A stretch of 64,000 nt of DNA from an uncultured Actinomycetes bacterium. Its GTDB lineage: Bacteria > Chloroflexota > Dormibacteria > Aeolococcales > Aeolococcaceae. The notes under the pieces are model-generated. The model saw nothing but the letters and a program-made list of their open reading frames with translations. It did not search any database and was not told the origin of the DNA. Made by a program: the position numbers and the translations under genes. Of this stretch, positions 2,859 to 36,560 are shown in pieces (the first letter of the stretch is position 1; every line of letters starts with the position of its first letter). The stretch is taken from positions 236,012 to 300,011 of the forward strand of contig CAZDTK010000001.1 of assembly GCA_964508345.1 (NCBI GenBank), in the 5' to 3' direction.

Positions 2859-3530
2859 ATGGTGCGCTTCACTCACGTGGCATCCGCCGGAGCGGCGGCC
2901 CTGCTGCTGGTCGCATGCGGGACCTCGACGGGGCAGACCCCAACGGGGACACCCAGCTCCGCTGCCACCGCGACCGGCACCGCGATGCCGACGCCGACAC
3001 CATCGCCCCCACCGACGGCGACACCCACCACCGCCCCCATCAGCCTCTCCTGCCCCTCGGCGAGCGAGGTCAGCACCGACGCCGGGGGACCCTCGTTCAT
3101 TCTCCAGGGCGCGGGAGGCAACGCCAACGAGTTGGAGCCGAACGGCCCCCCGCCTGCTGCCCCGCTACCCAGTGACCTCGCGGTCGGCTCGTGCTCCTAC
3201 ACCAACGCGGACAACATCATCATCATCATCGTCCTGGCCACCGGCTTCCCGGCCGCGGACTTCAGCACCGCCGAGCAGGACGTCACCCATCCCGAGGGCT
3301 TTGGCACCCCCACCGGCACCCAGACCTTCATCCCGCAGAGCGGCCTGGGAGACCAGGCGGTCGCCTACAGCTACAGCATCACCCCCACTGCGACCAACAG
3401 CGTCAGTTACGAGGAGGGGACGATCGCGATCCAGGGAACCAACCTGGTGAGCGTGCAGGTGTTGGGGAGCGCCTACGTCCCGACGATCCCGCAGGTGGCC
3501 AACACCCTCACCGCGGCGCTCCTGACCTGA
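2859..3530 (+). CDS. lipoprotein (LVAC lipobox), Thr/Pro-rich linker, unknown function
   Basis: Internal ATG at 2859 preceded by a G-rich RBS (ggggggaagg); signal peptide MVRFTHVASAGAAALLLVACG with Cys lipobox; the upstream part of the 2643 ORF looks non-coding. Confidence 0.6.
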   Translation: MVRFTHVASAGAAALLLVACGTSTGQTPTGTPSSAATATGTAMPTPTPSPPPTATPTTAPISLSCPSASEVSTDAGGPSFILQGAGGNANELEPNGPPPAAPLPSDLAVGSCSYTNADNIIIIIVLATGFPAADFSTAEQDVTHPEGFGTPTGTQTFIPQSGLGDQAVAYSYSITPTATNSVSYEEGTIAIQGTNLVSVQVLGSAYVPTIPQVANTLTAALLT

Positions 3531-3838
3531 GCCTCGAGGGAGCGGCGCCTTCTGCGGGAGGTCGTAGCTGTGGTCATCACGCTGGCGGTCGCGCACAGCC
3601 TCCGACGGTCGGGGATGAGGCGGTCCGGGGGTGAGGCGTGGACCTGGGCAGATCGAGATTCTCTCTGCGGGTGTTCGCTGGTGATCCGGGTACGCGCACA
3701 GCAATCGCGACACGAGGGTGTTGTTGCTGAGATTGTTGCGTCCTGTAGAGGAGGCTCAATGACCTAGGACCAAAGGGCCCAAGTACCCTACGCACGTTCG
3801 GCTAGGGTGCTCCTCGGGACCCCGCCTCCGAGGAGAAC

Positions 3839-4694
3839 CATGTCGACAGTAGCGCGGACGTTCCAGGGGCGAGGCGCCGTCCAGGTGGATTCCCGGCTCG
3901 ACTCCAGCTCGGGAGACGTCGTGTGGGGAGAGAATCGGGTCGCCTCGTCCAAGCGTCTCGCGAGAGTGGCCGGGGTCCTCTACCTGCTGGTCGGCATCCT
4001 CGGCGGGTTTGCCGAGGGGTACGTGGAACCCAAGATGTACGTTGCCGGCCACGCGGCGGCCACCGCGGGCAACGTGGTCGCGAATGCCGGCCTGATGCGC
4101 ATCGGTGTGGTGGCAGACCTATTGGATGGGACGGTCTTCGTAATCCTCGCGATGGCCCTCTACATCCTGCTGAAGGACGTGCACAAGAGCGTGGCGAGAG
4201 GGATGCTGATCCTCGTCGCCCTGGCCGCCGGCATCACCTGCCTCAGCGCACTCTTCGAGTTCGAAGGGCTGCGGGTCGCAACCGGAGCCGTCAACGTGGC
4301 CGCCTTGGGTACTGCCGGTTCGAATGCTCTGGTGCTGCTCCTGTTGGACTCCCAGCACTATGGGTTGCTCATCGCTCAGATCTTCTTTGGACTGTGGCTG
4401 GCGCCGCTGGGGTACCTCGCTTACAAGTCGGGGCGGTTCCCCAAGGCATTGGCCATCCTGCTCGTCGCGGCGAGTGTCTCCTACCTGTTCGATATGCTCG
4501 CGGCGTTCCTCGTCCCCGGTTTTGACAAGTCGATTCATACCCTCGCCAGTATCGTGCCGGCGGTCGCGGAGACGTGGATGGTCGGCTACCTTCTCATCGT
4601 CGGGGTGAGGAGCACGAGTACCGCAGGCCTCGGCGACCACAGCTCGAATGTCGATGTAGGGGGCTCCAGGCCCTCCGCAGACACGACAGATTGA
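3839..4694 (+). CDS. DUF4386-like multi-pass membrane protein
   Basis: ATG at 3839 with RBS gaggagaacc; 6-7 predicted TM helices; sequence pattern typical of the DUF4386 family (recall-based). Confidence 0.6.
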
Positions 4695-4887
4695 CGCGAG
4701 GCGAGGGCCGCTCGACGGTGACGTAGCCCGAGCGGACCGCGCCTCCGGGCATCGTGCGGCTGGGCAGCCGAGATTCTCCGTGGGTCCGTCAGATTGATCC
4801 CGTGCCCGGCCACAACCTCTTCAGCACGGCTCTGCCAGGCAATAGACTCGGGACTGACCCGTCAACACTTGGACAGGAGGGCGAAGG

Positions 4888-5367
4888 GTGGCCCCAACCA
4901 ATAAGGCGAGCAAGAGCACACAGAAGCGTGCGACTCGCACCAGCGCGAGCGGCACGGCATCCGCGGGATTCAGCGCTGAGGAGAAGGCGGCCGCCCGCGA
5001 GCGTGTCCGGGAGCTCAAGGCCGAGGCGGCCAAGGCGGATGGGGAGACAGAGCTGCTTGCCGCCATCGCCAGGATGCAGGAGCCGGATCGCACGATTGCC
5101 GAGAGGGTCCACGAACTGATCACTGCCGCAGCCCCGGCTCTCACACCGAAAACGTGGTACGGAATGCCCGCATACGCCAAGGACGGCAATGTGATCTGCT
5201 TCTTCCAAAACGCGGGGAAGTTCAAGGTCAGATACCAAACGATCGGCTTCAGCGACAAGGCGAAGATCGACGACGGTGCCATGTGGCCGATTCAGTACGC
5301 ACTCAGCAACCTGACTGCCAAGGAAGAGGCCAAGATCACCGCGCTTGTGAAGAAAGCGGTGCGCTGA
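4888..5367 (+). CDS. DUF1801 (YdhG-like) domain protein
   Basis: 159 aa; Lys/Ala-rich N-terminus then a conserved WYGMPAY...GNVICFFQ block typical of DUF1801/YdhG. Confidence 0.65.
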   Translation: MAPTNKASKSTQKRATRTSASGTASAGFSAEEKAAARERVRELKAEAAKADGETELLAAIARMQEPDRTIAERVHELITAAAPALTPKTWYGMPAYAKDGNVICFFQNAGKFKVRYQTIGFSDKAKIDDGAMWPIQYALSNLTAKEEAKITALVKKAVR

Positions 5368-5397
5368 AGGCGTCGTCCGATGTGGCCGGTGCGAACG

Positions 5398-6036
5398 CTA
5401 TCCTGCCTTCGCGGGTGGCCCCTGCGGATAGACGGTCTCGCCGCGGACGAGCATCTCCACGAACTGTGCCACGCGGCGGGCACGCGTCTCGGGGCGCTGG
5501 GCGCTTCCGATCCGGTAGAGAATCGCATAGCGGTTTCGCGATGTGAGGCGATCGAACATCGCCTGGGCCGCCCGGTTCGCACGCAGCGCTGCCGCCAGGT
5601 CGTCGGGGATCTCGATATCCCGGCTGCCCGCGTACGCCGACTCCCAGCGGCCGTCGCCCCTGGCCTGCTCAATGGCGGCGAGGCCCGCTTCCTGCATCCG
5701 CCCCTCCACGATGAGCCACTCGGCGATTGTCACATTCCGTTTCGACCAGCGGCTGCGGGCACCACGTGGGGTGAAGCGCTGGCAGTAGGTCACCTCGTCG
5801 CGCCTTCTGAGCTGGCCGTCGATCCAGCCGTGGCAGAGGGCCTCCTCCAGGGCCTCGTCGTAGTTCAGTCGGGTGGGCTCCTTCGTGCCTTTCTTGGCGA
5901 GCACGAGCCAGACGCCGGCGGCCTCGGCCTGATGGCGGCGGAGCCAGGATCGCCACGCGTCAGCGTTCTCGACGATCAGCTCAGGCAGGTCAGTGGCCAC
6001 GGCTTGGGAGCTTAGCTTCGGCCACCTGCCAGGCAC
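5398..6036 (-). CDS. YdeI/OmpD-associated family protein
   Basis: 212 aa with motifs WRSWL, VWLV, CHGWIDG, RNRYAILYRI characteristic of the YdeI/bacteriocin-protection family. Confidence 0.65.
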   Translation of the reverse strand: MPGRWPKLSSQAVATDLPELIVENADAWRSWLRRHQAEAAGVWLVLAKKGTKEPTRLNYDEALEEALCHGWIDGQLRRRDEVTYCQRFTPRGARSRWSKRNVTIAEWLIVEGRMQEAGLAAIEQARGDGRWESAYAGSRDIEIPDDLAAALRANRAAQAMFDRLTSRNRYAILYRIGSAQRPETRARRVAQFVEMLVRGETVYPQGPPAKAG

Positions 6037-6214
6037 CCTTCTTCAGGGCAGCGCCAATGCGGTGACGGTTCAGTTTGAATCGGAAGGTCGCGCAGCGTCG
6101 GGGTGGGCTCTGAGGGCCATGCCAATTGAAAGAAGCACCCCCCACATTCCGAATAAGACTAGAACGACCCCGGGCCGGCTGCAAAGGCAGCCCTGGCATC
6201 GCCCGTAGGATCGA

Positions 6215-6604
6215 TCACTCCACGAGCCTCGAGGCATGGGCTCGATACACCTCACTCTTGGCTTCGCGCCTCTGCCCGCTGTCCAGGGTCTCGATCAATG
6301 AGAGGAGACGCTTGGTCAGAATGATCAAGTACCGCGTGTCCGGAGTCAGCGCCACGAAGGTGTGAGCCACGCCGGCCGGAACGAAGACCGTCGACCCCGC
6401 CGGTGCTTCCAGCTCGCGATCGGCGAGGCGGAACCTCAAAGCTCCGGCCAGTACGTGCCACGCCTCATCGTCCGCGAGGTGGACGTGGAGCTCCCTGGGC
6501 CCGCTCCCGGTCCACTCACGCACCGCGAAGGAGTCTCCGGTCGCCTCGATGGGAGTTGTCGGGTGCCCACCGATGGCATAGCTGACGGCGGGCGTCGTGG
6601 CCAT
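6215..6604 (-). CDS. cupin domain protein
   Basis: 129 aa; cupin-like motifs (HVHLADDEAWHVLAG ... VFVPAGVAHTF). Confidence 0.6.
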   Translation of the reverse strand: MATTPAVSYAIGGHPTTPIEATGDSFAVREWTGSGPRELHVHLADDEAWHVLAGALRFRLADRELEAPAGSTVFVPAGVAHTFVALTPDTRYLIILTKRLLSLIETLDSGQRREAKSEVYRAHASRLVE

Positions 6605-6722
6605 CTCGAAAGCACCCTACCACCGAGCGCAGGCCCACGCTGTCGCCTGATCGGCGGGGCGATGGCGTGCGCCGGTAGGCCGAGCTTCTCTATGTAGGCG
6701 CTGCCCTGATCTCAACTTGGTC

Positions 6723-7127
6723 TCACCGAGACACCACCATGAGGTGGCGGTGAGCCGCGTCAGGCCAGGCTGCGATCGGGTCCGCGGCCGAGTAGATCTC
6801 CAGGCTGCTGAGGTAGCCGTGATCCAGGAAGACGAGAATCCCACCAATCTCCCCGCCCCGGTCGTCGGTCACCCTGGCTTCTGCGGGGATGGGCGATTTG
6901 GAGGCCGGAGCTGGTGGCGCCCCTTGCGGGTCCACGTGGAGGTCGACCGTCGCGCAGCCGCACTCGCACCTACCGACCACGGTGGCGTGAGGTAGTTGCG
7001 ATCGCAGGTCCTGGGCGCCCGTGAACTCCATGCCGAGGAGCTCGGTGAGCACCTCAAGCTCAGTGGCGGTCAATGCCCGCTCGGGCACCTCGCGAGTCAA
7101 GACCTCAGAGCCTACACCGGCGCCCAC
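6723..7127 (-). CDS. hypothetical protein with a CxCxC cluster
   Basis: 134-aa ORF (GRCECGCATVDLHVD); no recognisable domain. Confidence 0.35.
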   Translation of the reverse strand: MGAGVGSEVLTREVPERALTATELEVLTELLGMEFTGAQDLRSQLPHATVVGRCECGCATVDLHVDPQGAPPAPASKSPIPAEARVTDDRGGEIGGILVFLDHGYLSSLEIYSAADPIAAWPDAAHRHLMVVSR

Positions 7128-7257
7128 TCGCTCATCGGGCCGCTGGCGACGGGCGACCTCGGCAGGCCGAGATTCTCTCTAGGGCTGTCTTGTACTGGGG
7201 ACGCTCGTCACCCCTAGTCGCAACGGCGGCGACCGGCGCGTCCACCAGAATTGGCTG

Positions 7258-7503
7258 ATGCCAAAGAACCACGTCCCGAACCCCAACTGGAACGCGAAAC
7301 ACTTCTCACAAGCCAACCCGCGCGGCCGCGGACAGGGCAACGTTCCCCGGCTTCTCCGGCGTGTCGCCAACACGCTTGCGATCCTGGGTGAGATTGAGGT
7401 TCAAGATCTCGTCATGCATACGGAGATCACACCCGACGGGGCCTGGCCATCGGTCACCGTCTACTACCACTCGACAGCCAGGAGCCGCAATCGCGTCAAG
7501 TAG
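7258..7503 (+). CDS. hypothetical small protein (81 aa)
   Basis: ORF in an otherwise non-coding 440-bp gap, downstream of the recurrent GGCAG..CGAGATTCTCT motif; lower GC than neighbours; no homology recognised. Confidence 0.25.
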   Translation: MPKNHVPNPNWNAKHFSQANPRGRGQGNVPRLLRRVANTLAILGEIEVQDLVMHTEITPDGAWPSVTVYYHSTARSRNRVK

Positions 7504-7569
7504 ATACGGTCAATATCGGCAGGCCCAGCTCCACCGTCGCCGCTCCCCAGCGGAGCCGCACGCTCGCGC

Positions 7570-8328
7570 TCAGATGCTCGCCGCCGCCGCGGTGTCCAGG
7601 AACCAGCGCAGGTCACCCTCCGCCGGCCGCACCCGGGCGGCCGGGACCGTGCCCGCCGCCACGCCGCGGAGCGCATCCCCCTTGGCAGCGCCGGTGACCA
7701 GGAAGGCGACGTTGCGGGCGGCGTTCAGCACCGGGAAGGTGAGCGTGATGCGGTCGAAGGGGGCGTAGTCAGCGCGGGCTCGCGCCGCCCAGCGGTCGGT
7801 GACCTCGAGCACGGGGTCACCCGGGAACAGCGACGCGGTGTGGCCGTTCTCGCCGAGGCCGAGCAGGACGGCGTCGAGACGGGGCGCGTCGCCCGCCGCG
7901 CCGGAGGCGCAGGTGGCGGCGAGGACAGCGGCGTAGTCGGCGGCGGCCAGGTCCAGGTCCTCGCGCTCCCCCTCCATCCGGTGGACGCGCCCGGCGGCGA
8001 CCGGCACGTGGTCGAGCAGCGCCTCGCGGGCCATCCGGTAGTTGCTGCCCGGGTCGTCGGGGGGACAGGCGCGCTCGTCGCCGAAGAAGAACTCCCAGCG
8101 CGCCCAGTCGGTGCGCTCCCGGCGGGGCGCCGTGGCCAGCAGCGAGTAGAGGCTGCGCGGGGTGCTGCCCCCCGCGAGCGCGATCGCGAAGCGGCCGCTC
8201 CGGGTGATCGCGTCGCCCGCCAGGTCCAGGAGCCAGTCCGCGGCGGCCGCGGCGACCCCCGCCGGGTCGGCGGCGACGCTCACCGTGCCGGGCAGCTCGG
8301 CGGTCCCACTCATGAGGTGCTCATCCAC
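7570..8328 (-). CDS. pgl: 6-phosphogluconolactonase
   Basis: 252 aa; Pgl/NagB fold motifs (AIALAGGSTP, FFGDER, LLGLGENGHTASLFPG); last gene of the PPP operon. Confidence 0.85.
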   Translation of the reverse strand: MDEHLMSGTAELPGTVSVAADPAGVAAAAADWLLDLAGDAITRSGRFAIALAGGSTPRSLYSLLATAPRRERTDWARWEFFFGDERACPPDDPGSNYRMAREALLDHVPVAAGRVHRMEGEREDLDLAAADYAAVLAATCASGAAGDAPRLDAVLLGLGENGHTASLFPGDPVLEVTDRWAARARADYAPFDRITLTFPVLNAARNVAFLVTGAAKGDALRGVAAGTVPAARVRPAEGDLRWFLDTAAAASI

Positions 8329-8373
8329 GGCTCACATCCCTCCGCGCACCGCCCGTCTCCCTCCGCGCATCGC

Positions 8374-9984
8374 TCACGGACGGCGCCACTCCCGGCCGTC
8401 CCGGCGCATGAAGGCGTCGGCCTCGGGAGGCCCCCAGCTGCCGGCCTCGTAGTTGGGACAGTTGAGGCGATCCGGCGGGTGCGAGCGCCAGCCGTCGAGG
8501 ATGGCGGTGCACACCCGCCACGCCTCCTCGACCTCGTCCTCGCGGGCGAAGAGGGTGGCGTCGCCGAGCATCGCCTCCAGCAGCAGCCGCTCGTAGGCGT
8601 CGGGCGAGGCGCGCTGGAAGCTGGAGCCGTAGGAGAAGTCCATGGCCACGCTGCGGATCTTCATCGACTGGCCGGGGACCTTGGCGCCGAAGCGGAGCTG
8701 GATGCCCTCGTCGGGCTGGATGCGCAGCAGCAGCAGGTTGGGCTCGATGGCGTCGGGCGGCGGCGCGCCTCCCGGCATCGCCTGGTGGCCGCCGAAGGGG
8801 GAGTGGGGGACGCGGCGGAATTGGACCGCGATCTCGGTCGCCCGGCTGGGCAGGCGCTTGCCGGTGCGCAGGTAGAAGGGGGTGCCCGCCCACCGCCAGT
8901 TGTCGATGTCGAGCTTCATGGCGACGTAGGTCTCGCGCAGCGACTCGGGAAGGACGCCGGGCTCCTCGCGGTAGCCGGGGACGCGCTCGCCGTTCACCGT
9001 CCCCGGCCCGTACTGGCCGCGCACGGTGTGGAGCAGCGCGTCCTCGGGGTGGATGGGGCGGATGGCACGGAGCAGCTTGACCTTCTCGTCGCGGACCGTC
9101 TCGGTCTCGAAGTTGCTGGGGGGTTCCATGCCGACGATGGCGGCGAGCTGCATGACGTGGTTCTGGATGATGTCGCGCAGCGCCCCGGTCTCCTCGTAGA
9201 AGGGACCGCGCCCCTCCACCCCGAGCTCCTCGGCGACGGTGATCTGGATGTGGTCGATGTAGCGCCGGTTCCAGATCGGCTCGAAGATGCCGTTGGCAAA
9301 GCGGAAGACCAGGACGTTCTGGACCGTCTCCTTTCCCAGGTAGTGGTCGATGCGGTAGATCTGCGGCTCCTCGAAGGCGCCATGCAGGGCGGTGTTGAGC
9401 CCGCGGGCGGTGGCGAGGTTGCGGCCAAAGGGCTTCTCCACCACCAGCCGGCGGAACCAGGTGCGGTCCGTCTCCCGGCTCATCCCCTCGCGGCGCAGGC
9501 GCTCGGCGAGCGGCGCGAAGCCGCTGGGCGGGATCGCGAAGTAGTAGATGCGGTTGCCCGCGGTTCCCCGCTCCCGGTCGGCGCGGTCGAGCGCCTCCTT
9601 GACAGCCTCGAGCCCGCCGTCCTGGTCGGAGAACTGCGCGTAGCTCAGGCCGGCGGCGAAGCCCTCCCAGACCTCCTCGTCGAGGCGCAGCCGGGCGAAC
9701 CGCGACACCGCGTCGCGCATGCCGGCCCGGAACTGCTCGTCGCCGATGGGGTGGCGGCCGGCACCGATGACCGCGAAGCCGGCGGGGAGGAGCCCGTCCA
9801 CCGCCAGCGCGTAGAGGGCGGGGATCAGCTTGCGCTTGGTCAGGTCGCCGGTCGCCCCGAAGATGACCAGCGCGTTCGGTGGCGGCGCCGGGACCTCCTC
9901 GTCGCCGTCGCCGGACCCGCCGGGCTCCACCTCCCGCTCCGGGGAGACCTCCTCGGTCCCGGTGCCGGCGATGGTCACGCTCAC
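8374..9984 (-). CDS. zwf: glucose-6-phosphate 1-dehydrogenase
   Basis: NAD(P)-binding motif LVIFGATGDLTKRKLIPAL, active-site motif RIDHYLGKE, EKPFG; N-terminal acidic extension, start may be downstream. Confidence 0.9.
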   Translation of the reverse strand: MSVTIAGTGTEEVSPEREVEPGGSGDGDEEVPAPPPNALVIFGATGDLTKRKLIPALYALAVDGLLPAGFAVIGAGRHPIGDEQFRAGMRDAVSRFARLRLDEEVWEGFAAGLSYAQFSDQDGGLEAVKEALDRADRERGTAGNRIYYFAIPPSGFAPLAERLRREGMSRETDRTWFRRLVVEKPFGRNLATARGLNTALHGAFEEPQIYRIDHYLGKETVQNVLVFRFANGIFEPIWNRRYIDHIQITVAEELGVEGRGPFYEETGALRDIIQNHVMQLAAIVGMEPPSNFETETVRDEKVKLLRAIRPIHPEDALLHTVRGQYGPGTVNGERVPGYREEPGVLPESLRETYVAMKLDIDNWRWAGTPFYLRTGKRLPSRATEIAVQFRRVPHSPFGGHQAMPGGAPPPDAIEPNLLLLRIQPDEGIQLRFGAKVPGQSMKIRSVAMDFSYGSSFQRASPDAYERLLLEAMLGDATLFAREDEVEEAWRVCTAILDGWRSHPPDRLNCPNYEAGSWGPPEADAFMRRDGREWRRP

Positions 9985-10053
9985 GGGAGCCGGTCCACGC
10001 TGCCGGTGGCGGTCGGGGTCATGGGTGCGGCTCCACCGCCCGGTGCGCTCCGC

Positions 10054-12897
10054 TCAGCCCGCGGGGGCTCCGGCGGTCTCGCGGACGCTGCGGGCCAGGG
10101 CCTCCAGGGTCTGGTCCAGGTCGTCGTCGACGTGGATCCGGATCACTCGCCGTCCATGGTTGCGCAGCGACTGCAGGTCGCCCTGAACCTGGGCCTGCTT
10201 GAGCACCGAGAAGGTGAACGGCTGTCCGGGGATGGTGACATCGACGGAGTCGTTGGCCGTCACCTGGATGAAGACCCCGGTGTTGGGCCCGCCCTTGTGG
10301 AGCTGTCCCGTGGAGTGGAGGAAGCGCGGCCCGAAGCCGAGCGTGGTGGCCACCCGGTACCGGTCGCGGATCGCGGTCCGCAGCTCGTCGAGCGGGCCCT
10401 CCTCGGCGGTGAAGGGATTGACGTAGGCCATGATCGCGACGTAGTCGCCGGGCTTGACCAGGGCGAGGTGGGCGAGCAGCGCCGCCTCCGCGGATGCCGC
10501 CGGACCGCCCCCGTAGACGCGCACCCCGCCGGCGTTCGCCGCGGGCTCCTCCTCGGGCAGGCTGCCGCTCTTCTCGTAGGCGGCGAGCACGGCCTGGGTG
10601 TTGTCCTTGGACTCCTTGACGTTGGGCTCGTCGAAGGGGTCGATCTGGAGCGAGACGGCGGCCACCGCGGTGGCGAACTCCCAGCGGAAGAACTCGGCGC
10701 CCAGGTCGTAGGCGTCGCGCAGCTCGAGGACCACCGCGGGCTGGCCGGCCGCGATCAGCGTCTCCACCTGCCCGTCGACGTGGCAGGGCTCGCCGCCCAG
10801 GCACAGCCCGACCACCAGGCGGTCGTCCCCGTAGTCCTCGGGCTTGCCCACCGGCTCCTTGCCGATGGGGATGTAGCCCTTCCCCTCCTTGCCGGTGGAC
10901 TCGGCGATCAGCTGCTCCGCCCACAGGGAGAAGGAGGCGATCTGCGGCGGCGCCAGGATGGTGACCTTGTCGTGACCGGCGGCGTGGGCCAGGCTGAGCG
11001 CCGCGCCCAGCTCCAGCCCGCAGTTGAGCTCGGGGAGCGTCGCCGCGGCGCAGGTGGCGCGCATGGCGATGGCGCGGTCGAGGAGCAGCCCGACGTCCAG
11101 CCCCATCACCGCCGCCGGCACCAGGCCAAAGAAGCTGAGCGCCGAGTAGCGCCCGCCGATGTCGCCCGGGTTCTCGAAGAGGTGGCGGAAGCCACGCTCG
11201 GCCGCGATGTTGGCGAGCGGCGTGGCGTGGTCGGTGATGGCGGCGAAGTGCTCACCGGGGTGGGCGGCGCCGGTGGCGGTCACCGCCTCCCAGAAGTGGG
11301 CCAGGTGGGAGGAGGTCTCCAGGGTCGTGCCCGACTTGCTGGCGACCAGGAAGAGGGTTTGCTCCAGCTCCAGGCGGCTCTCCAGCTGGGTGATCGCCTC
11401 GGGGTCGGTGGTGTCCAGGACGTGGAGGACGGGGAAGCCGGCGGCGCTGCCGAAGGAGGTGCGCAGCACCTCGGGGCAGAGGCTGGAGCCGCCCATGCCG
11501 AGCAGCACGCAGTCGGTGTAGCCGGCCTGGCGCACCTCGGTGGCGAAGGCGGTCAGCTCTCCGACGCGCTGGCGCATGGTGACGGGGACGTCGAGCCAGC
11601 CCAGCCGGTTGCCGATCACCGCCGCTGCGGCAGGGTCGCCCGGCTTCCAGAGGTCGGGGTCGCGCGCCCAGATCCGCTCGGCGATCCGGTCGCGGCCCGC
11701 CTGGGCGACGGCGTCCTCGATGCTCTCCCCGCCCAGCGCCAGGTGGAAGGTCACGCGCTTGCCGTACCCGCCCCGGAAGGAGTCCAGCTTGCCGGCGATC
11801 CCGCTGATCAGCTGGTCGTACGAATCGGCGAAGGACTTGACGCCGGCGGTGAGCAGGTCCTGGGTGACCTTGGCCACGCTGATCCCGGCCGCCTCCAGGT
11901 CGAAGACTGTCTGCTCGGCGGCGTCGACGTCCTCGCGGACGGTGTCGCCGGCGACGATGCCGTGGTCGCGGAAGGCCTCGACCGTGGCCGGCGGCATGGT
12001 GTCGACGGTGTCCGGCCCGATCAGCGCCTCGGCGTAGACCACGTCGCGGTACTTGGGGTTCTTGGCGCTGGTGCTCGCCCACAGCGGCCGCTGCACGGGG
12101 GCGCCGGCGTCGCGCAGGCGCTTGAAGGAGTCGCCCCGGAAGTGCTTCTCAAAGGCCTCGTAGGCGAGGCGGGCATTGGCGATCGCCGCCTTGCCGAGCA
12201 GCGCCTCCAGGCGGGTGGCGTCACCGCCCGCCTTGATCCTCTCGTCGAGGAGGGCGTCCACGGCGGTGTCGACCCGGCTCACGAAGAACGAGGCCACCGA
12301 GTGGACCGCCAGGGATTGATGCGCATCCAGGCGCCGCTGCAACCCGTGGAGGTAGGCGGCGATCACGCGCTCGTACGCATCCAGGGCAAAGATGAGGGTC
12401 ACGTTGATGTTGACCCCGGCCGCGATCAGCTCCTCGACGGCGGGGATGCCCTCGGGGGTCGCCGGCACCTTCACCATGAGGTTGGGCCGCTCCACCCGCT
12501 TCCAGTACTCCTGGGCGAGGGCGACGCTCCCCTCGGTGTCGTGGGAGAGCGGAGGGGGCAGCTCCAGGCTCACGTAGCCGTCCGCGCCCTGGGTGCGGTC
12601 GTAGACCGGGCGGAGAGTGTCGCAGGCGTGCCGGATGTCGCTGATGGCGAGGCGGAGGAAGACCTCCTGGGGGTCGGTCACGCCCTGGCCGAGCAGCTCG
12701 TGGATCTGCTCGTCGTAGTGGGTGCCGTCGGCGATCGCCTTCTCGAAGATGGTCGGGTTGCTGGTCATGCCGGTGACGTTGTCCTCGGCGATCAGCCGGG
12801 CCAGCTCGGGCCCGGTGACCAGGTCGCGGCTGATGTAGTCGAGCCACACGGACTGGCCGTGGTCCGCGAGCCGCTGGAGCGGGTTGAGAGCCGGCAT
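10054..12897 (-). CDS. bifunctional transaldolase / glucose-6-phosphate isomerase fusion (947 aa)
   Basis: ATG at complement 12895-12897 gives MPALNPLQRLADHGQSVWLDYISRD (transaldolase N-terminus, TSNPTIF motif). The C-terminal ~550 aa carry PGI/SIS motifs (LLGMGGSSLCPEV, VASKSGTTLET, GGRYSALS). The six-frame ORF 10054..14700 is over-extended because its 5' part overlaps tkt in another frame. Confidence 0.85.
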   Translation of the reverse strand: MPALNPLQRLADHGQSVWLDYISRDLVTGPELARLIAEDNVTGMTSNPTIFEKAIADGTHYDEQIHELLGQGVTDPQEVFLRLAISDIRHACDTLRPVYDRTQGADGYVSLELPPPLSHDTEGSVALAQEYWKRVERPNLMVKVPATPEGIPAVEELIAAGVNINVTLIFALDAYERVIAAYLHGLQRRLDAHQSLAVHSVASFFVSRVDTAVDALLDERIKAGGDATRLEALLGKAAIANARLAYEAFEKHFRGDSFKRLRDAGAPVQRPLWASTSAKNPKYRDVVYAEALIGPDTVDTMPPATVEAFRDHGIVAGDTVREDVDAAEQTVFDLEAAGISVAKVTQDLLTAGVKSFADSYDQLISGIAGKLDSFRGGYGKRVTFHLALGGESIEDAVAQAGRDRIAERIWARDPDLWKPGDPAAAAVIGNRLGWLDVPVTMRQRVGELTAFATEVRQAGYTDCVLLGMGGSSLCPEVLRTSFGSAAGFPVLHVLDTTDPEAITQLESRLELEQTLFLVASKSGTTLETSSHLAHFWEAVTATGAAHPGEHFAAITDHATPLANIAAERGFRHLFENPGDIGGRYSALSFFGLVPAAVMGLDVGLLLDRAIAMRATCAAATLPELNCGLELGAALSLAHAAGHDKVTILAPPQIASFSLWAEQLIAESTGKEGKGYIPIGKEPVGKPEDYGDDRLVVGLCLGGEPCHVDGQVETLIAAGQPAVVLELRDAYDLGAEFFRWEFATAVAAVSLQIDPFDEPNVKESKDNTQAVLAAYEKSGSLPEEEPAANAGGVRVYGGGPAASAEAALLAHLALVKPGDYVAIMAYVNPFTAEEGPLDELRTAIRDRYRVATTLGFGPRFLHSTGQLHKGGPNTGVFIQVTANDSVDVTIPGQPFTFSVLKQAQVQGDLQSLRNHGRRVIRIHVDDDLDQTLEALARSVRETAGAPAG

Positions 12898-12902
12898 CGG
12901 TG

Positions 12903-14786
12903 TCAGTGCCCCCCTGCGGTGGTCTTGGCGGCGTGGCGCGCGGCCTTGGCGATCCCCTCGGCGTCGATGCCCTCGGCGGCCAGCAGGTCGCTGGTCTTGC
13001 CGCTCCCCGGGACGCTGCGCACGGCGAGGTGGAAGATCCGCGGCGGATGGTCGTCCCCGGCGAGCGCCTCCATCACCGCGGCGGCCAGGCCCCCCTCGGG
13101 GTAGTGGTCCTCGACCACGACGAGGATCCCGCCGCAGTCGCGGGCGGCCTGGCGGAGCACCTCGGCATTGATCGGCTTGATCGAGTAGCAGTCGATGACC
13201 CGGACGGGGATGCCCTCGCCGGCCAGCTTGTCGGCGGCGGCAAGCGCCTGGTGCACGGTTACCCCGGCGGCGACCACCGCGGCCCGGTCGGCGTCGCTGC
13301 GCCGCACCACCCGGGCACCGCCGATGGGGAAGGCGTCGCCGTTGTCGTAGAGCACGGGGTAGGCGTTGCGGGTGGTCCGGATGTAGGAGATCCCCGGCCG
13401 GTCGGCCATCTGGGCGACCAGCTTGGCGCAGCTCACTGCGTCGCTCGGGTAGAGGACGGTCGAGCCGTGGACCGCGCGCAGCGAGGCGATGTCCTCCAGC
13501 GCCATCTGCGAGGGGCCGTCGGCGCCGATCTCGCTGCCGGCGTGGGAGCCGGAGAGACGGATGTCGGCCTGGGAGATCGCCGCCATGCGGATGAAGTCGT
13601 ATGCACGGGAGACGAAGGCCGCGAAGGTGGAGGCGAAGGGGATGTAGCCGCGCACCTGGAGGCCGATCGCGGCCGAGACCAGCTGCTGCTCGGCGATGAA
13701 CATCTCGAAGAAGCGCTCGGGGTGCGCCTTCTTGAACTCGTCGGCGTGGGTGGAGTTGCTCACCTCGCCGTCCAGGGCCACCACCTCGGGGCGGGCGCCC
13801 AGGGCGGTGATGGCGTCCCCGTACGCCTTGCGGGTGGCGACCTTGTCGCCCAGGGTGTAGGTGGGGAGGGTGACCTCGACGCGCTCGGGGCTGATGGCCG
13901 GGGTGCCCCGCTCCGGCTTGTGGACGTCGAGGAGGACGTCGCGCTCGCCGCCCAGCTCGGCGATCGCCCGCGCCGCCATCTCCGGGGAGAGGGCCACGCC
14001 GTGCCAGCCCTCCTTGTTCTCGATCTCGGAGAAGCCCTTGCCCTTGATCGTCCGGGCGAGGATGACCGTCGGCCGGCCCACCGTCTCCCGGGCGTCGACG
14101 AAGGCGCCGTCGATCTCCTCCAGGTTGTGGCCGTCGATCACCAGCGCCCGGCAGCCGAAGGCCTCCACCCGGCGGCGGTAGGCCTCCAGGTTCCAGCCGA
14201 ACTCGGTCTCGCCCCGCTGGCCGAGCCGGTTGATGTCGGCCATGATCGTGAGGTTGTCCAGCCGGTAGTGGCTCGCCTTGTCCAGCGCCTCCCAGATCGA
14301 GCCCTCGGCCAGCTCGCTGTCGCCGCAGAGCACCCAGACCCGGTAGGGGAGCTTGTCCAGATACATGCCGGCGAGCGCCACCCCCACCGCGATGGGGAGC
14401 CCCTGGCCCAGCGAGCCGGTGGCGACGTCCACCCAGGGGATGACCGGGGTGGGGTGGCCCTGGAACTTGGAGCCGAAGGTCCGGTAGGTCATCAGCTCGG
14501 CGTCGTCGATCACCCCGCAGGCCTTGTAGAAGGCGTAGAGGAGGGGGGAGGCGTGGCCCTTGGAGAAGATGAGGTGGTCGTTGGTCGGCAGCTCGGGGCG
14601 GGTGAAGTCGTAGTGGAGGTGGCGCCCGCCGAGGACCGCGAGCAGGTCGGCCGCGGACATGCTGGAGGTCGGGTGTCCCGACCCGGCCCGGGTGCTGCAC
14701 CGGATCGCGTCGATCCGGATCTGCTGAGCCACCTCGTGGAGGGTGTCCAGGTCCACGAGACCCGCTGCCTGTCCGGTCGCCGCCAT
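12903..14786 (-). CDS. tkt: transketolase
   Basis: ATG at complement 14784-14786 with an AGGAGG RBS; ThDP motifs (GHASPLLYA, GDSELAEGSIWEA, GSLGQGL); 5 nt upstream of the tal-pgi start. Confidence 0.9.
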   Translation of the reverse strand: MAATGQAAGLVDLDTLHEVAQQIRIDAIRCSTRAGSGHPTSSMSAADLLAVLGGRHLHYDFTRPELPTNDHLIFSKGHASPLLYAFYKACGVIDDAELMTYRTFGSKFQGHPTPVIPWVDVATGSLGQGLPIAVGVALAGMYLDKLPYRVWVLCGDSELAEGSIWEALDKASHYRLDNLTIMADINRLGQRGETEFGWNLEAYRRRVEAFGCRALVIDGHNLEEIDGAFVDARETVGRPTVILARTIKGKGFSEIENKEGWHGVALSPEMAARAIAELGGERDVLLDVHKPERGTPAISPERVEVTLPTYTLGDKVATRKAYGDAITALGARPEVVALDGEVSNSTHADEFKKAHPERFFEMFIAEQQLVSAAIGLQVRGYIPFASTFAAFVSRAYDFIRMAAISQADIRLSGSHAGSEIGADGPSQMALEDIASLRAVHGSTVLYPSDAVSCAKLVAQMADRPGISYIRTTRNAYPVLYDNGDAFPIGGARVVRRSDADRAAVVAAGVTVHQALAAADKLAGEGIPVRVIDCYSIKPINAEVLRQAARDCGGILVVVEDHYPEGGLAAAVMEALAGDDHPPRIFHLAVRSVPGSGKTSDLLAAEGIDAEGIAKAARHAAKTTAGGH

Positions 14787-30606: not shown

Positions 30607-31412
30607 AGGGCGCGGATCTTGTGCGCCTTCTCCACCAGCTTCTCGGCCCGGGCCGGGTCCACCGGGTTCCAGGTGATCCCGTCCACCTTGAGGCTGGTGC
30701 CCACGATCACCCCGTCGGCGATCGAGAGGATCTCGGTGAGCCGGTCGGCCTGGACCCCGGTGTTGGCGAAGACGGGCGTCTGCGGGACCGCCTCCTTGGC
30801 CTGGCGCAGGTCGCTCATGGCGAAGGGGACCCCCGCCTCCGGGCCGCTGATGAGGATGGCGTCGACGCCCAGGAAGGCGGCGCTCTTGGCCCTCTCGGCG
30901 ACGGTGCGGGTGCCGATCGTGCTGCTGAACTCCGGGGTGATGTTGTCGAAGAGGGCGACGTCCCCCGCGCCGATGTTCTCCCGGTAGGCGGCGAGGTCGC
31001 CCAGCGCCGGGGCGAAGAGGCCCATGTCGCTCTCGTATACGCCGGTGAAGACCTCGCGGACAAAGGTCGCCCCCGTCGCCCGGGCCAGGGCCAGGCTCGC
31101 CCGCGCGTCCCAGAGGATGTTGACCCCGAAGGGGACCCGGATCGAGGAGCGCAGCTCGCCGATCACGGCCGCCATCGCCGCCGGGATCTCCGGACCGACC
31201 GCGAGCTGGTAGGGGATGTCGGCCTCGTTGCAGAAGAGCACCGCGTCGACGCCCGCCTCCTGGAGCACCAGGAGGTCCTTGCCGACCACGTCGACGAGGT
31301 GCTGGCGCCCCGCCTCTCGATCATGCCGCGGCCGGCCCGGCAGTCCGGGGAAGTGCAGCATCGCGATCACCGGCTTGGAGACACCGAACCTCTGCTCGAG
31401 CGACATGGTCAT
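30603..31412 (-). CDS. BtpA/SgcQ-family TIM-barrel protein (paralog A)
   Basis: 269 aa; VIAMLHFPGLPG ... LFCNEADIPYQ ... ISGPEAG pattern of the BtpA (PF03437) family; 4-nt overlap with the HAD gene. Confidence 0.8.
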   Translation of the reverse strand: MTMSLEQRFGVSKPVIAMLHFPGLPGRPRHDREAGRQHLVDVVGKDLLVLQEAGVDAVLFCNEADIPYQLAVGPEIPAAMAAVIGELRSSIRVPFGVNILWDARASLALARATGATFVREVFTGVYESDMGLFAPALGDLAAYRENIGAGDVALFDNITPEFSSTIGTRTVAERAKSAAFLGVDAILISGPEAGVPFAMSDLRQAKEAVPQTPVFANTGVQADRLTEILSIADGVIVGTSLKVDGITWNPVDPARAEKLVEKAHKIRAL

Positions 31413-35738: not shown

Positions 35739-36560
35739 TCAGCGCGCTCCGGCGGGCTCGCGGACCCTGCCCACCGCCTCCATGAACCTGCCCGCGCGCT
35801 CCGGATCCACCTCGTTCCAGGTGATGCCGTCGCGCTTCAGGTGGGTGCCGACGATGGCGCCGTCGGCGACGGCGAGGATCCCCGCCACCGTCTCCGCAGT
35901 CACCCCGGTGTTGGCGAGGACGGGGACCTGGGGCACCGCATGCTTGGCGGCGCGCAGATCCTCGATGTCGGTTTCGGTCCCCGTGATCTGCCCGCTGATG
36001 AGGAGCGCGTCGATCCCCAGATAGACGGCGCTCCGGGCCCGCTGCGCGACGGTGCGGTGGCCCAGCGGACTGGCGAACTCCGGGGTGATGTTGCTGAAGA
36101 CGGCCACCCCGGCGGCGCCGATGTGGGCGCGGTGGTCGCCGACCGCGCCCATGTCAGGCCGCATCAGGCCGAGGTCACTCTCGTAGACGCCGGTCGCCAC
36201 CTCGCGGATGAAGGACGCCCCCGTCGCCCGGGCGACCGCCAGGCTTGCGATCGGGTCCCAGACCAGGTCGACCCCGAAGGGCAGCCGCAGCACGCTGCGC
36301 AGCTCGCCGATCGTCGCCGCCATCGCCGCCACCGCCTCGGGACCGACCCGCAGCTGGTAGGGGAGGTCGGCCTCATTGCAGAAGAGGAGGCCGTCGACGC
36401 CGGCGGCCTGGAGGGTCTCCACGTCACGGGCGACGGCCTCGGCGATGGGAGGCATCCCCGCCACCCGGTCGTGGCCGGGGCGGCCCGGCAGGGCGGCGAG
36501 GTGGACCATCGCCACGATCGGCCTGTCGACCCCGAAGAGGTCGCGCAGCAGTGGGCTCAT
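35739..36560 (-). CDS. BtpA/SgcQ-family TIM-barrel protein (paralog B)
   Basis: 273 aa, ~50% identical by eye to paralog A (IVAMVHLAALPGRPGHD ... LFCNEADLPYQ ... LISGQITG). Confidence 0.8.
   Translation of the reverse strand: MSPLLRDLFGVDRPIVAMVHLAALPGRPGHDRVAGMPPIAEAVARDVETLQAAGVDGLLFCNEADLPYQLRVGPEAVAAMAATIGELRSVLRLPFGVDLVWDPIASLAVARATGASFIREVATGVYESDLGLMRPDMGAVGDHRAHIGAAGVAVFSNITPEFASPLGHRTVAQRARSAVYLGIDALLISGQITGTETDIEDLRAAKHAVPQVPVLANTGVTAETVAGILAVADGAIVGTHLKRDGITWNEVDPERAGRFMEAVGRVREPAGAR

Follow-up and report, generated by a model that had tools for sequence, protein, structure and literature searches.

A ~40-bp repeat at the junctions of mobile cassettes in one Candidatus Dormibacteria lineage is a candidate recombination site

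A short motif that recurs between genes in a 64-kb window (the whole stretch of DNA analysed here) is probably, in our cautious judgment, the crossover core of a ~40-bp duplex-DNA recombination site that lies at the junctions of mobile cassettes in one Candidatus Dormibacteria lineage. The motif belongs to a repeat family whose copies are clustered and are co-oriented at each locus. When loci are compared, homology stops within the core, blocks on the two sides of it occur in different combinations, and one cassette is bounded by the site in three unrelated contexts. The hosts are a single lineage of uncultured peat-bog bacteria.

The window contains three exact copies and one degenerate copy of the motif, all on the + strand. 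These four copies lie within 3.6 kb, with spacings of 1116, 1911 and 487 nt, and the remaining 60 kb contains none. All of them (4/4) are intergenic, and there is no copy in the ~55 other intergenic spaces of the window. The features of this region are as follows.

3400..7600, no strand: lower-GC island (GC 62-68% vs 70-77% in the flanks) with the whole array inside it
3637..3677, + strand: copy c1, CGTGGACCTGGGCAGA-TCGAGATTCTCT-CTGCGGGTGTTCG, with motif GGCAGATCGAGATTCTCTCT at 3647-3666; left-most copy in the array (nhmmer 30 bits)
3840..4694, + strand: cargo of cassette 1, a DUF4386 membrane protein of 284 aa, between c1 and c2 (Pfam E=4.7e-47)
4753..4793, + strand: copy c2, with motif GGCAGCCGAGATTCTCCG at 4763-4780 (nhmmer 17 bits)
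4888..5367, + strand: cargo of cassette 2, a DUF1801-like protein of 159 aa; in locus L032 the same cassette also lies after a motif copy
5398..6036, - strand: YdeI/OmdA-family protein (Pfam PF13376 E=2.9e-23; 200 aa in the gene call)
6215..6604, - strand: Cupin_2 protein of 129 aa, with its start 60 nt left of c4
6664..6704, + strand: degenerate copy c4, with motif GGTAGGCCGAGCTTCTC at 6674-6690 (nhmmer 20 bits)
6723..7127, - strand: cargo of cassette 3, an ORF of 121-134 aa with no family match, between c4 and c3
7151..7191, + strand: copy c3, with motif GGCAGGCCGAGATTCTCTCT at 7161-7180 (nhmmer 39 bits)
7258..7503, + strand: 81-aa ORF, right of c3 and final unit ahead of the core gene pgl
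7515..7528, + strand: candidate decayed left-arm half-site (ATCGGCAGGCCCAG), with 3 mismatches, between the 81-aa ORF and the pgl stop

A preliminary description of this DNA had reported the copies at 3647-3666, 4763-4780 and 7161-7180 and had given their distances to the next + strand gene start. All three copies are present at these positions, and the distances are 174, 108 and 78 nt, but the fourth copy (6674-6690) and the conservation over ~40 nt had been missed. The window matches the pattern GGCAG-N1-3-CGAGNTTCTC 3 times, against 0.00 expected from 100 dinucleotide-preserving shuffles. The 10-mer core alone, with at most 1 mismatch, is found 8 times vs 4.6 expected, which is not significant, so the significance of the motif comes from the longer composite and not from the 10-mer. 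Copy c3 (GGCAGGCCGAGATTCTCTCTAGGGCTG) is the window copy nearest to the family consensus. Copy c2 has a left arm that is 1 nt shorter and a divergent right arm (CGTGGGTCCG), and copy c4 has the left arm GGTAGG and a core variant, GAGCTTCTC, that recurs in 5 other nonredundant copies elsewhere. The half-site at 7515..7528 is suggestive by position only, since half-site-like matches with 3 mismatches are no better than chance (41 in the window vs 30 expected).

The island occupies a variable gap between rpe and pgl-zwf-tal/pgi-tkt, and the same rpe/pgl gap in three related genomes contains other genes and no motif. Gene calling on metagenome contigs gives the same DUF4386 gene. The YdeI/OmdA-family gene is convergent with the DUF1801 gene, and the two share one inter-motif interval. 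The stop of the cassette 3 ORF is 19 nt right of c4, and the first 82 nt of this ORF together with the left arm of c3 resemble the region upstream of a motif copy in locus L126. A junction site and the nearest gene start in a cassette are 80-490 nt apart, which would be enough to accommodate a separate promoter for every gene.

A ~40-bp element, cGTGnAnCTGGGCAGG-CCGAGATTCTCT-CTAGGGCTGC, has the motif as its invariant 12-nt core, CCGAGATTCTCT. The core contains a small palindrome (GAGA-T-TCTC) and is flanked by an imperfect left arm (..CTGGGCAGG) and a right arm (CTAGGGCTGC..) in inverted orientation, which gives the dyad GCAGGCC-GAGA-TTC-TCTC-TA-GGGCTGC. The inverted arms are ~10 bp long and imperfect (GCAGGCCGAG / CTAGGGCTGC), are symmetric at 8/10 positions, and surround a 7-bp asymmetric spacer, ATTCTCT; the gap between arms varies from 1 to 2 nt. 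Conservation is highest in the core, including among 19 copies that were selected by neither search pattern, and the arms are variable, each following its own flank. A conserved core with variable arms is expected of a recombination site, because the crossover region must match between partner sites. The one plausible hairpin shows no covariation: 73.0% of its cells are standard pairs, shuffles give 73.4%, and 1 of 571 cells is compensatory. Folding of the 100-nt flanks of 47 copies is not in excess either (z ~0).

Related loci, which carry L numbers here, were retrieved by exact matches to the core. The same element is present in related Dormibacteria MAGs and in peat metagenome contigs, either singly or in arrays of 2-6 copies with a spacing of 0.45-2.8 kb, and the arrays are found in at least 10 different genomic contexts. 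Counting copies of at least 13 bits, there are 4 in the window, 6 in L032, 5 in L096, 4 each in L051, L159 and L158, and 3 each in L141 and L164, while many loci have only one copy in 10-14 kb. Orientation is mixed in 0 loci at this threshold: all of the ~30 adjacent pairs are co-oriented, and no locus examined has an inverted pair. In contrast, the genes between copies point in either direction. They encode DUF4386, DUF1801, YdeI, cupin, methyltransferase, DinB-like, GNAT and Mrr proteins, with AbiEii-like and HTH proteins as further cargo. With this cargo and their lower GC content, the units look like accessory cassettes.

The preliminary description had preferred a transcription-factor or sigma-factor regulon, for which the orientation of the motif relative to genes was one proposed check. 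The position of three window copies 78-174 nt upstream of + strand genes and the GAGA-T-TCTC palindrome would suit an operator or an alternative-sigma promoter of a small regulon. However, among 70 copies from related loci, the downstream gene is co-oriented with the motif in only 19/62 scorable cases, at distances that range from 13 to >2000 nt. The copies lie in 22 convergent, 21 tandem and 7 divergent settings, which is a preference for gene 3' ends and makes the promoter-rich divergent spacers the rarest. Within a locus the copies have one orientation and the genes both, the gap between the arms is variable (1-2 nt), and blocks of homology break inside the motif. Contigs L183 and L184 encode DUF4386 homologues that are 75-81% identical and have no copy, and the motif is kept with DUF1801 in L032 only within a block whose homology begins at the site. 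Neither a fixed orientation and distance nor conservation of the site upstream of orthologous genes was found, and promoter prediction gave no sigma-70-like promoter for the region. The gene orientation, the DUF4386 homologues and the promoter prediction thus leave the regulon proposal unsupported, and we regard a regulatory site as very improbable. The position of three window copies upstream of + strand genes comes from a local coincidence involving three cassettes.

The preference for 3' ends could also point to an element that acts in the transcript (an intrinsic terminator, an RNA-stabilising hairpin or a small RNA motif at gene ends), and copy c3 is in fact flagged as terminator-like, with a 5-bp stem and a T-rich tail. 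This stem depends on a base specific to c3 (CTCGG, where most other copies have CTGGG), and the region has 2 terminator-like matches vs 2.1 expected from shuffles. The upstream gene is co-oriented with the motif in only 38/58 cases. An RNA motif had been a further suggestion of the preliminary description; with no Rfam match, no hairpin covariation and no excess flank folding, an element of this kind is highly doubtful. The suggestion that did prove correct is that of a small repeated element, since related genomes contain arrays of a ~40-bp repeat family that has the motif as its core.

Comparison of the loci with one another suggests what may happen at these repeats. Of 348 internal blastn block endpoints, 110 fall at most 30 nt from a motif centre, while intervals of that size make up ~1.5% of the sequence. 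The breaks are inside the core, and each arm keeps to its own side, the left one to the upstream block and the right one to the downstream block. Four different downstream blocks follow upstream block U0, and five different upstream blocks precede downstream block D1, but both counts are weakened because part of U0 (~85 nt) and of D1 (~25 nt) is not cargo but an extension of the element particular to a subfamily. Among other downstream blocks, D0 has three upstream partners, D4 three, and D17 (DUF1801) two. L051 and L096 share a 600-nt block, 97-98% identical, that ends at ...GAGATTCTCT. The DUF1801 cassette of the window is homologous to that of L032 from GCCGAGATTCTC onward (copy c2), with unrelated sequence upstream; the proteins are 89% identical, and the DNA is ~92% identical by global alignment and 84-89% by local blastn. 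The right boundary of this homology is 6 nt past the stop codon, away from any site, which indicates that other rearrangements also shape the arrays. A methyltransferase cassette of 854 nt, extending from core to core, is 98.2-98.3% identical in L051, L159 and L175/L129, and its flanks are unrelated in each of these three contexts. A DinB-like cassette has a different next cassette in different loci. In this small sample of loci, we found no simple polymorphism of the type A-site-B vs A-site-X-site-B and no indel of the element alone, and no circular cassette junction was seen.

We infer that exchange is carried out by a site-specific recombinase and not by homologous recombination. Each cassette would hold one to three accessory genes, facing either way, and, in the linear array, would start with a right arm and finish with a left arm. 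Recombination within the cores of two co-oriented sites could excise, insert or swap a cassette, and such events would produce both co-oriented arrays and mosaic relationships between arrays. The asymmetric spacer would make the site directional. Signature searches of the window and ~400 kb of related loci detected neither a tyrosine nor a serine recombinase, nor an HUH enzyme. Among 146 flanking proteins compared with Pfam, the only recurrent transposases are of the DDE (rve) and IS110 types. The putative recombinase would act in trans, because none is encoded beside any array examined.

A rather unlikely alternative is that the ~40-bp element is a selfish repeat of the REP or MITE kind, either itself mobile or spread by a RAYT, that settles in 3' intergenic spaces, with the mosaics arising secondarily by homologous recombination or horizontal transfer between copies. 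Like REP/BIME sequences, the element is short, extragenic (an imperfect palindrome in the 20- to 40-nt range), lineage specific and preferentially found after gene 3' ends, and it carries G(C/T)AG towards its 5' side. Loci of 10-14 kb often have a solitary copy, and IS110-family elements insert in the element. Insertion sequences of the IS110 and IS3 families are known to target REP/BIME sequences. Unlike them, however, the element has a stem that is not kept by compensatory changes, with pairing equal to that in shuffles, and the centre, or "loop," is its most conserved part, above the arms. Copies at each locus are strictly co-oriented, neither paired nor inverted, and cluster at cassette boundaries in accessory islands; the window copies are restricted to one such island. 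No RAYT-type HUH...Y signature was detected in the window or across ~400 kb of related loci, and in the small sample of loci no element-only indel was found. Finally, exchange is limited to the 12-nt identical core, which is presumably short for RecA-dependent recombination.

The IS110 insertions also raise the possibility, which we consider improbable, that the motif is a preferred target of these bridge RNA-guided elements and that their enzymes reshuffle DNA between target-like sequences. An intact IS110-family element interrupts the core after ..GGCCGA in L126, and a second copy, in L175/L129, is broken at the same point. In L166, a Transposase_20-like ORF, divergent and apparently degraded but IS110-like, lies ~110 nt beyond the equivalent point. 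IS110 transposases are, moreover, the only recombinases in the examined data with visible specificity for this site. Against this, there is no IS110 copy in the window or near most arrays, and the L175 element has a degraded look and no motif remnant at its far end. IS110-family elements target recombination sites and repeats, REP sequences among them, and they commonly use existing repeats as safe targets.

Of previously described systems, integrons come closest in organization. In integron arrays and in arrays that lack an integrase (CALINs), as in the arrays described here, sites are co-oriented with one short site per small cassette, split between the ends of the linear cassette; cassettes recur in varied arrays and orders; the accessory cargo is often of unknown function; and, as in CALINs, no recombinase is adjacent. 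The window and the related loci have at least two co-oriented sites at cassette-sized intervals, and discrete cassettes bounded by sites recur in different arrays. Nevertheless, a classical CALIN, with the motif in a true attC whose folded single strands are recombined by a distant IntI, is extremely unlikely. An attC is a palindrome of 57-141 nt with R'' (RYYYAAC) and R' (GTTRRRY) in which structure is conserved over sequence, and there are zero RYYYAAC...GTTRRRY pairs at 40- to 145-nt spacing, either in 3400-7700 or in the whole window. An inverse core is not a regular partner of the site: one occurs within 160 nt in 5/47 copies upstream and 4/47 downstream, vs ~2 expected on each side, and the flanks give no folding signal. 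What is conserved is ~40 bp of sequence, not a structure: a duplex in which an asymmetric, invariant core lies between imperfect inverted arms and which has no attC fold, R''/R' consensus or extrahelical-base architecture. The genes face both ways, the 80-490 nt from a site to the nearest gene start would have room for their own promoters, and the arrays are at many chromosomal loci in a Dormibacteria host. This comparison includes sedentary chromosomal integrons whose attC sites are conserved in sequence, such as the Vibrio cholerae repeats. No IntI-type integrase, which complete integrons encode beside the array, is present within 10 kb on either side of the window array or, by signature search, in the related loci. 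Promoter, transcription-factor regulon, terminator, REP-type hairpin and classical attC were all considered as candidates, and none is supported by the data.

The pdif modules of Acinetobacter plasmids and the IMEX at dif are also modules without a recombinase, with sites of two arms and a centre that a host recombinase (XerC/D) serves in trans, and IMEX form tandem co-oriented arrays. However, pdif sites alternate in orientation whereas copies of the ~40-bp element are all co-oriented, and IMEX arrays are at the single chromosomal dif whereas arrays of this element are at many loci. The 28-bp Xer/dif layout (11-6-11) is compatible with an element of two arms and a 5- to 7-nt centre; the motif is unlike the AT-rich consensus that we take to be that of dif, which may not be the consensus of this lineage. 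The lox, FRT and lambda core sites likewise have inverted arms, an asymmetric spacer and a centre that is identical in all partner sites. This resemblance to tyrosine recombinase core sites is one of layout only, and the layout would suit a serine recombinase with a central TT dinucleotide just as well.

The element appears to be undescribed so far: we found no description of the repeat in the full-text literature on integrons, including integrons together with Dormibacterota, or by its sequence. The enzyme that acts at the proposed recombination site might be a host Xer-like enzyme, an orphan tyrosine or serine recombinase, or a bridge RNA-guided IS110-type enzyme. Relatives of the last of these are seen inserted in the core. 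We tentatively suggest that the arrays may represent a new integron-like cassette system of Dormibacteria, in which promoter-bearing cassettes would be captured, excised and reordered at a ~40-bp duplex site by a recombinase encoded elsewhere.

The three motif copies in the window are present at exactly the coordinates given in the preliminary description, and its distances from these copies to the next plus-strand start codons are correct. The pattern GGCAG-N1-3-CGAGNTTCTC occurs three times in the window, compared with 0.00 expected from 100 dinucleotide-preserving shuffles, and the bare 10-mer with one mismatch allowed is not significant in the window (8 found and 4.6 expected). This one-mismatch scan, followed by fuzzy and profile searches, yielded a fourth, same-strand copy (GGTAGGCCGAGCTTCTC, positions 6674-6690). 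All four copies lie within 3637-7191; in the remaining 60 kb of the window, no credible copy turned up in a profile search, and a putative decayed half-site at 7515-7528 matches no better than chance. The island that holds the copies (3400-7600) has a GC content of 62 to 68%, compared with 70 to 77% in both flanks, and contains six small genes, which are arranged with the copies (c1 to c4) as follows:

3637-3677, plus strand, motif copy c1
3840-4694, plus strand, DUF4386 gene
4753-4793, plus strand, motif copy c2
4888-5367, plus strand, DUF1801-like gene
5398-6036, minus strand, YdeI/OmdA gene
6215-6604, minus strand, cupin gene
6664-6704, plus strand, motif copy c4
6723-7127, minus strand, ORF of 121-134 aa
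7151-7191, plus strand, motif copy c3
7258-7503, plus strand, 81-aa ORF

The island is bordered on one side by genes for unknown and BNR-like proteins (BNR/Asp-box repeat family) and on the other by the pentose-phosphate genes pgl-zwf-tal/pgi-tkt. The nearest named homologues of the window's pgl are from Candidatus Dormibacteria/Dormiibacterota, at ≤78% identity, and metagenome contigs from peat bog, the longest of 999 kb, encode a protein identical to that of the DUF4386 gene. Three relatives keep the gene order tkt-tal/pgi-zwf-pgl, variable genes, rpe, with different genes in the gap and zero motif copies in 60 kb. Since the gap genes of the relatives differ and are not accompanied by the motif, we conclude that the motif is specific to a sub-lineage and that the locus between pgl and rpe is variable. 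Four short, independent metagenome contigs (L121, L122, L123, and L124) end 70 to 140 nt before c4 or ~65 nt after c3, where two long contigs read through (window ~6530-6600 and ~7256); these ends may represent strain-level variation at the array. Elsewhere in the window, a G+C-rich direct repeat with a period of 15/30 nt (GGCGGCCATGCGGGTGGCGG..., 59213-59342) is probably a repetitive coding segment, and two 300-nt segments that are 70% identical and 5148 nt apart (30611-30910 and 35759-36058) are likely to be paralogous genes in tandem clusters. A 1754-aa open frame at 7840-13104 (plus strand) overlaps the genuine pgl and zwf genes of the minus strand and was rejected as an antisense artefact of high-GC DNA.

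The complete element is ~40 nt long and has the form cGTGnAnCTGGGCAGG-CCGAGATTCTCT-CTAGGGCTGC. Its 12-nt core is near-invariant, including in 19 copies that were selected by neither search pattern, the exception being an A/C polymorphism at the center that recurs in these unselected copies. The arms are less conserved than the core, with 1-nt indels tolerated in the left arm. Read from the sequence, GCAGGCCGAG and CTAGGGCTGC form imperfect inverted arms (8/10 symmetric) around ATTCTCT.

When one genome per species was scanned with the pattern CTSGGCAG-N1-2-CGAGATTCTC, most of the matches listed were chance hits or coding sequence in unrelated phyla (e.g., ...SAAEIL... in S41 peptidases), and three of those listed are true loci; the window's own genome was not among them. 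Two of these, L032 and L051, are from the MAG MFD04492.bin.2.96, labelled Chloroflexia, and the third, L096, is from a SPRUCE peatland Dormibacteria MAG; each has 4 to 6 copies on a single strand, spaced 0.45 to 1.9 kb apart. Scanning metagenomes for the core plus right arm yielded 53 loci, of which ~40 are high-GC and mostly from peat samples; SPRUCE and Stordalen are the sources of L125-L177. Viral contigs gave no match to the core plus right arm, and two viral-contig matches to GGCAGGCCGAGATTCTC are coding sequence. A profile made from the copies finds 2 to 6 copies in many loci and one in others; these counts refer to loci collected via the core sequence. Among copies scoring ≥13 bits, orientation is uniform inside every locus (~30 adjacent pairs). 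Sequence searches of the literature, and a search for Dormibacterota together with integron, found nothing relevant to the repeat. One subfamily (L051:4395-4486, L096:3501-3600, L147, L172, L177, and L163) shares an extra ~85 nt upstream (GGTAAGT..GCCCCAGCTGGAC..GGATCAC..GGCCGATCAAGCCAGC..GTGTACCTGGGCAGG), and a different subfamily has ~25 nt in common downstream (GCGTCATACGGGTGAACRACA). In L132 (4741-4833) and L154 (4354-4445), just 45 nt of gene-free sequence separate two copies, an arrangement resembling an "empty cassette"; the left arm of the second copy is poor (GCGTGGCCCAAATTCTCTCTAGGG).

Comparison of loci places many boundaries of shared sequence at the motif. Blastn blocks between loci have 348 internal endpoints; 110 of these are no more than 30 nt from a motif center, while windows of this size make up only ~1.5% of the sequence. 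Combinatorial joining was judged by clustering the 150 nt upstream (U blocks) and downstream (D blocks) of each copy. U0 is joined to D0, D1, D8, and D11; D1 to five different U blocks; D0 to U0, U3, and U9; D4 to three U blocks; and D17, the DUF1801 cassette, to U33 in the window and U43 in L032. U0 and D1 weigh less because they include the ~85- and ~25-nt subfamily-specific extensions of the element; the other blocks are genuine cargo. Three examples place the boundary at base resolution: L051 and L096 share a 600-nt block at 97 to 98% identity that stops at ...GGCAGGCCGAGATTCTCT, with complete divergence beyond, and an 854-nt methyltransferase cassette that is 98.2 to 98.3% identical across L051, L159, and L175/L129 spans core to core, with unrelated flanks in each of its contexts. 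The window's c2 plus DUF1801 is ~92% identical to L032 by global alignment (84 to 89% by local blastn), and this homology begins at GCCGAGATTCTC, upstream of which the sequences are unrelated. Cassette order also varies among arrays, with the DinB-like cassette being followed by the methyltransferase in L163 and L051 and by another cassette in L096. Because left-arm polymorphisms track the upstream block and right-arm polymorphisms track the downstream block, the exchange interval is the 12-nt core. The data show that a co-oriented, clustered family of sites bounds discrete blocks of accessory genes that recur in varied combinations.

Of the window's cassettes, DUF1801 alone recurs in the related loci compared. 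On the right, its homology ends not at a site but 6 nt past the stop codon, and the c2-c4 interval contains three genes, so rearrangements of other kinds also occur. The collected loci include no pair that differs by a simple cassette indel, an element-only indel, or presence/absence, and no circular cassette junction; none of the indels detected between loci is at a motif site. One of these loci, L144, has a 1658-nt insertion (1175-2831) with a 4-nt overlap at its flanks and a 453-aa ORF, which is missing from the 99.8 to 100% identical L127, L149, and L160 and the ~99% identical L152 and is presumably an insertion sequence polymorphic in the population.

The preliminary description had suggested, among other options, a shared regulatory site upstream of plus-strand genes, and this does not hold across the family. 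In only 19 of 62 cases does the downstream gene have the same orientation as the motif, and the position of the motif relative to genes favors 3' ends (22 convergent, 21 tandem, and 7 divergent intergenic positions). The region has no predicted sigma-70-type promoter, and a sigma-54 or ECF promoter was rejected on the variable 1-2-nt gap together with the orientation data. Homologues of the DUF4386 gene on two other contigs (L183 and L184) have no motif copy, which argues against a regulatory site for this gene. The alternative suggestion of an RNA motif fared no better: Rfam gives nothing relevant at gathering or E-value thresholds, 73.0% of cells are paired in the sole plausible stem compared with 73.4% in shuffled sequences, with one compensatory cell, and 100-nt flanks fold no better than shuffles. 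As for a terminator, c3 alone was flagged, via a copy-specific base, and the number flagged equals the shuffle expectation. A conserved C-terminal peptide or a stop codon within the motif was rejected on account of the 1-nt indels of the left arm and of upstream genes that end 6 to 400 nt away. A tRNA-derived att site was rejected, the window's only tRNA genes being at 22 kb and 62 kb, as were terminal inverted repeats of abutting transposons, since complete solitary sites exist in 10-14-kb loci. A classical attC site is likewise rejected: there are zero RYYYAAC...GTTRRRY pairs, no systematic inverse-core partner, and no fold, and long attC-like hairpins were not found around the copies.

Based on these comparisons of sequence, we classify the motif as a putative cassette-junction recombination site. 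A site-specific recombinase would recombine within the invariant asymmetric center, so that cassettes could be excised, inserted, and reordered; if the methyltransferase cassette were excised as a circle, its predicted junction would read ...GTCGTCAACGCGGTCAATCCGAGATTCTCTCTAGGGGTGCAGGTCGTTCACCC.... A crossover region in which the two partners need to match fits a center that is more conserved than the arms, and it also fits the independently varying arms, the absence of structural constraint, and the strict orientation. For RecA-dependent exchange, 12 identical bases would seem few. Neither the window nor ~400 kb of related loci has tyrosine recombinase, serine recombinase, or HUH signatures, so any recombinase must act in trans, as with integrase-less attC clusters (CALINs) and Xer-dependent modules. 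Among 146 non-redundant flanking proteins searched against Pfam, the only recurrent recombinases are DDE (rve) and IS110-family transposases.

In L126 (5574-7100), an intact IS110-family element (5596 to ~7100; a 357-aa protein with DEDD_Tnp_IS110 and Transposase_20, 5750-6823) lies inside a motif copy, which it breaks directly past ...CTGGGTAGGCCGA. Its left junction is ...CCGTGAAGCTGGGTAGGCCGA|CTTTCACATCAGCC, and its right end is placed approximately, near ...CCTCTCACTAGAGCAAGGCTGC. In L175 (2598-2738; also L129), the methyltransferase cassette has a second site that is interrupted exactly where the L126 copy is (...GCGGTCCGGCCGA|AGGTTCACGG), and no motif remnant was found at the other end of the IS110-like element there. 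In L166 (~9240-10255), a divergent IS110-like ORF (Transposase_20-like) that is apparently frameshifted lies ~110 nt past the equivalent breakpoint. This shows that IS110-family elements recognize the motif site, and a bridge-RNA-guided enzyme is a speculative candidate for the recombinase. An IS3-family element (HTH_Tnp_1 orfA plus rve orfB) at L051:2652-3841 adjoins the array and cuts short the DinB-like cassette, which is complete in L096 and L163, and in L051, L125, L146, and L176, IS3 OrfB-like fragments of 21 to 22 aa closely precede motif copies.

Targeting by IS110 elements, together with size and extragenic location, is a feature that the motif has in common with short palindromic REP elements, and the main rival explanation is a REP-like selfish repeat combined with secondary homologous exchange. 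In contrast to REP elements, the motif copies show no hairpin covariation, no dispersal within the window, and no inverted pairing in any locus collected, and we consider this explanation unlikely. If it were nevertheless correct, this would still be the first such family described for the phylum, and it would mark the variable islands of the lineage.

A cassette-junction site invites comparison with integrons, the established bacterial system for storing and reshuffling accessory genes, which needs folded attC sites and the integrase IntI; to our knowledge, most described integrons are from Proteobacteria and a small number of other phyla. In its behavior the motif system resembles an integrase-less integron array, but the motif fails the defining tests of attC sites (consensus, fold, and single-strand logic). 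Gene orientation and the presence of arrays at many loci also set the system apart from integrons. With pdif/IMEX modules it shares the trans-acting logic but not the orientation pattern or the single-locus placement. We suggest, tentatively and with some doubt, that the motif is part of a distinct, undescribed cassette system. If so, an abundant uncultured phylum of soil and peat would have a second, structurally simpler cassette solution, and cassette-based genome plasticity would be wider and mechanistically more varied than integron-finding tools reveal. The 12-nt core and its arms would then provide a sequence tag with which metagenomes could be mined for this lineage's accessory gene pool. 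Such a system would also point to a putative recombinase that acts on a well-defined, compact site of 40 bp and could have practical use.
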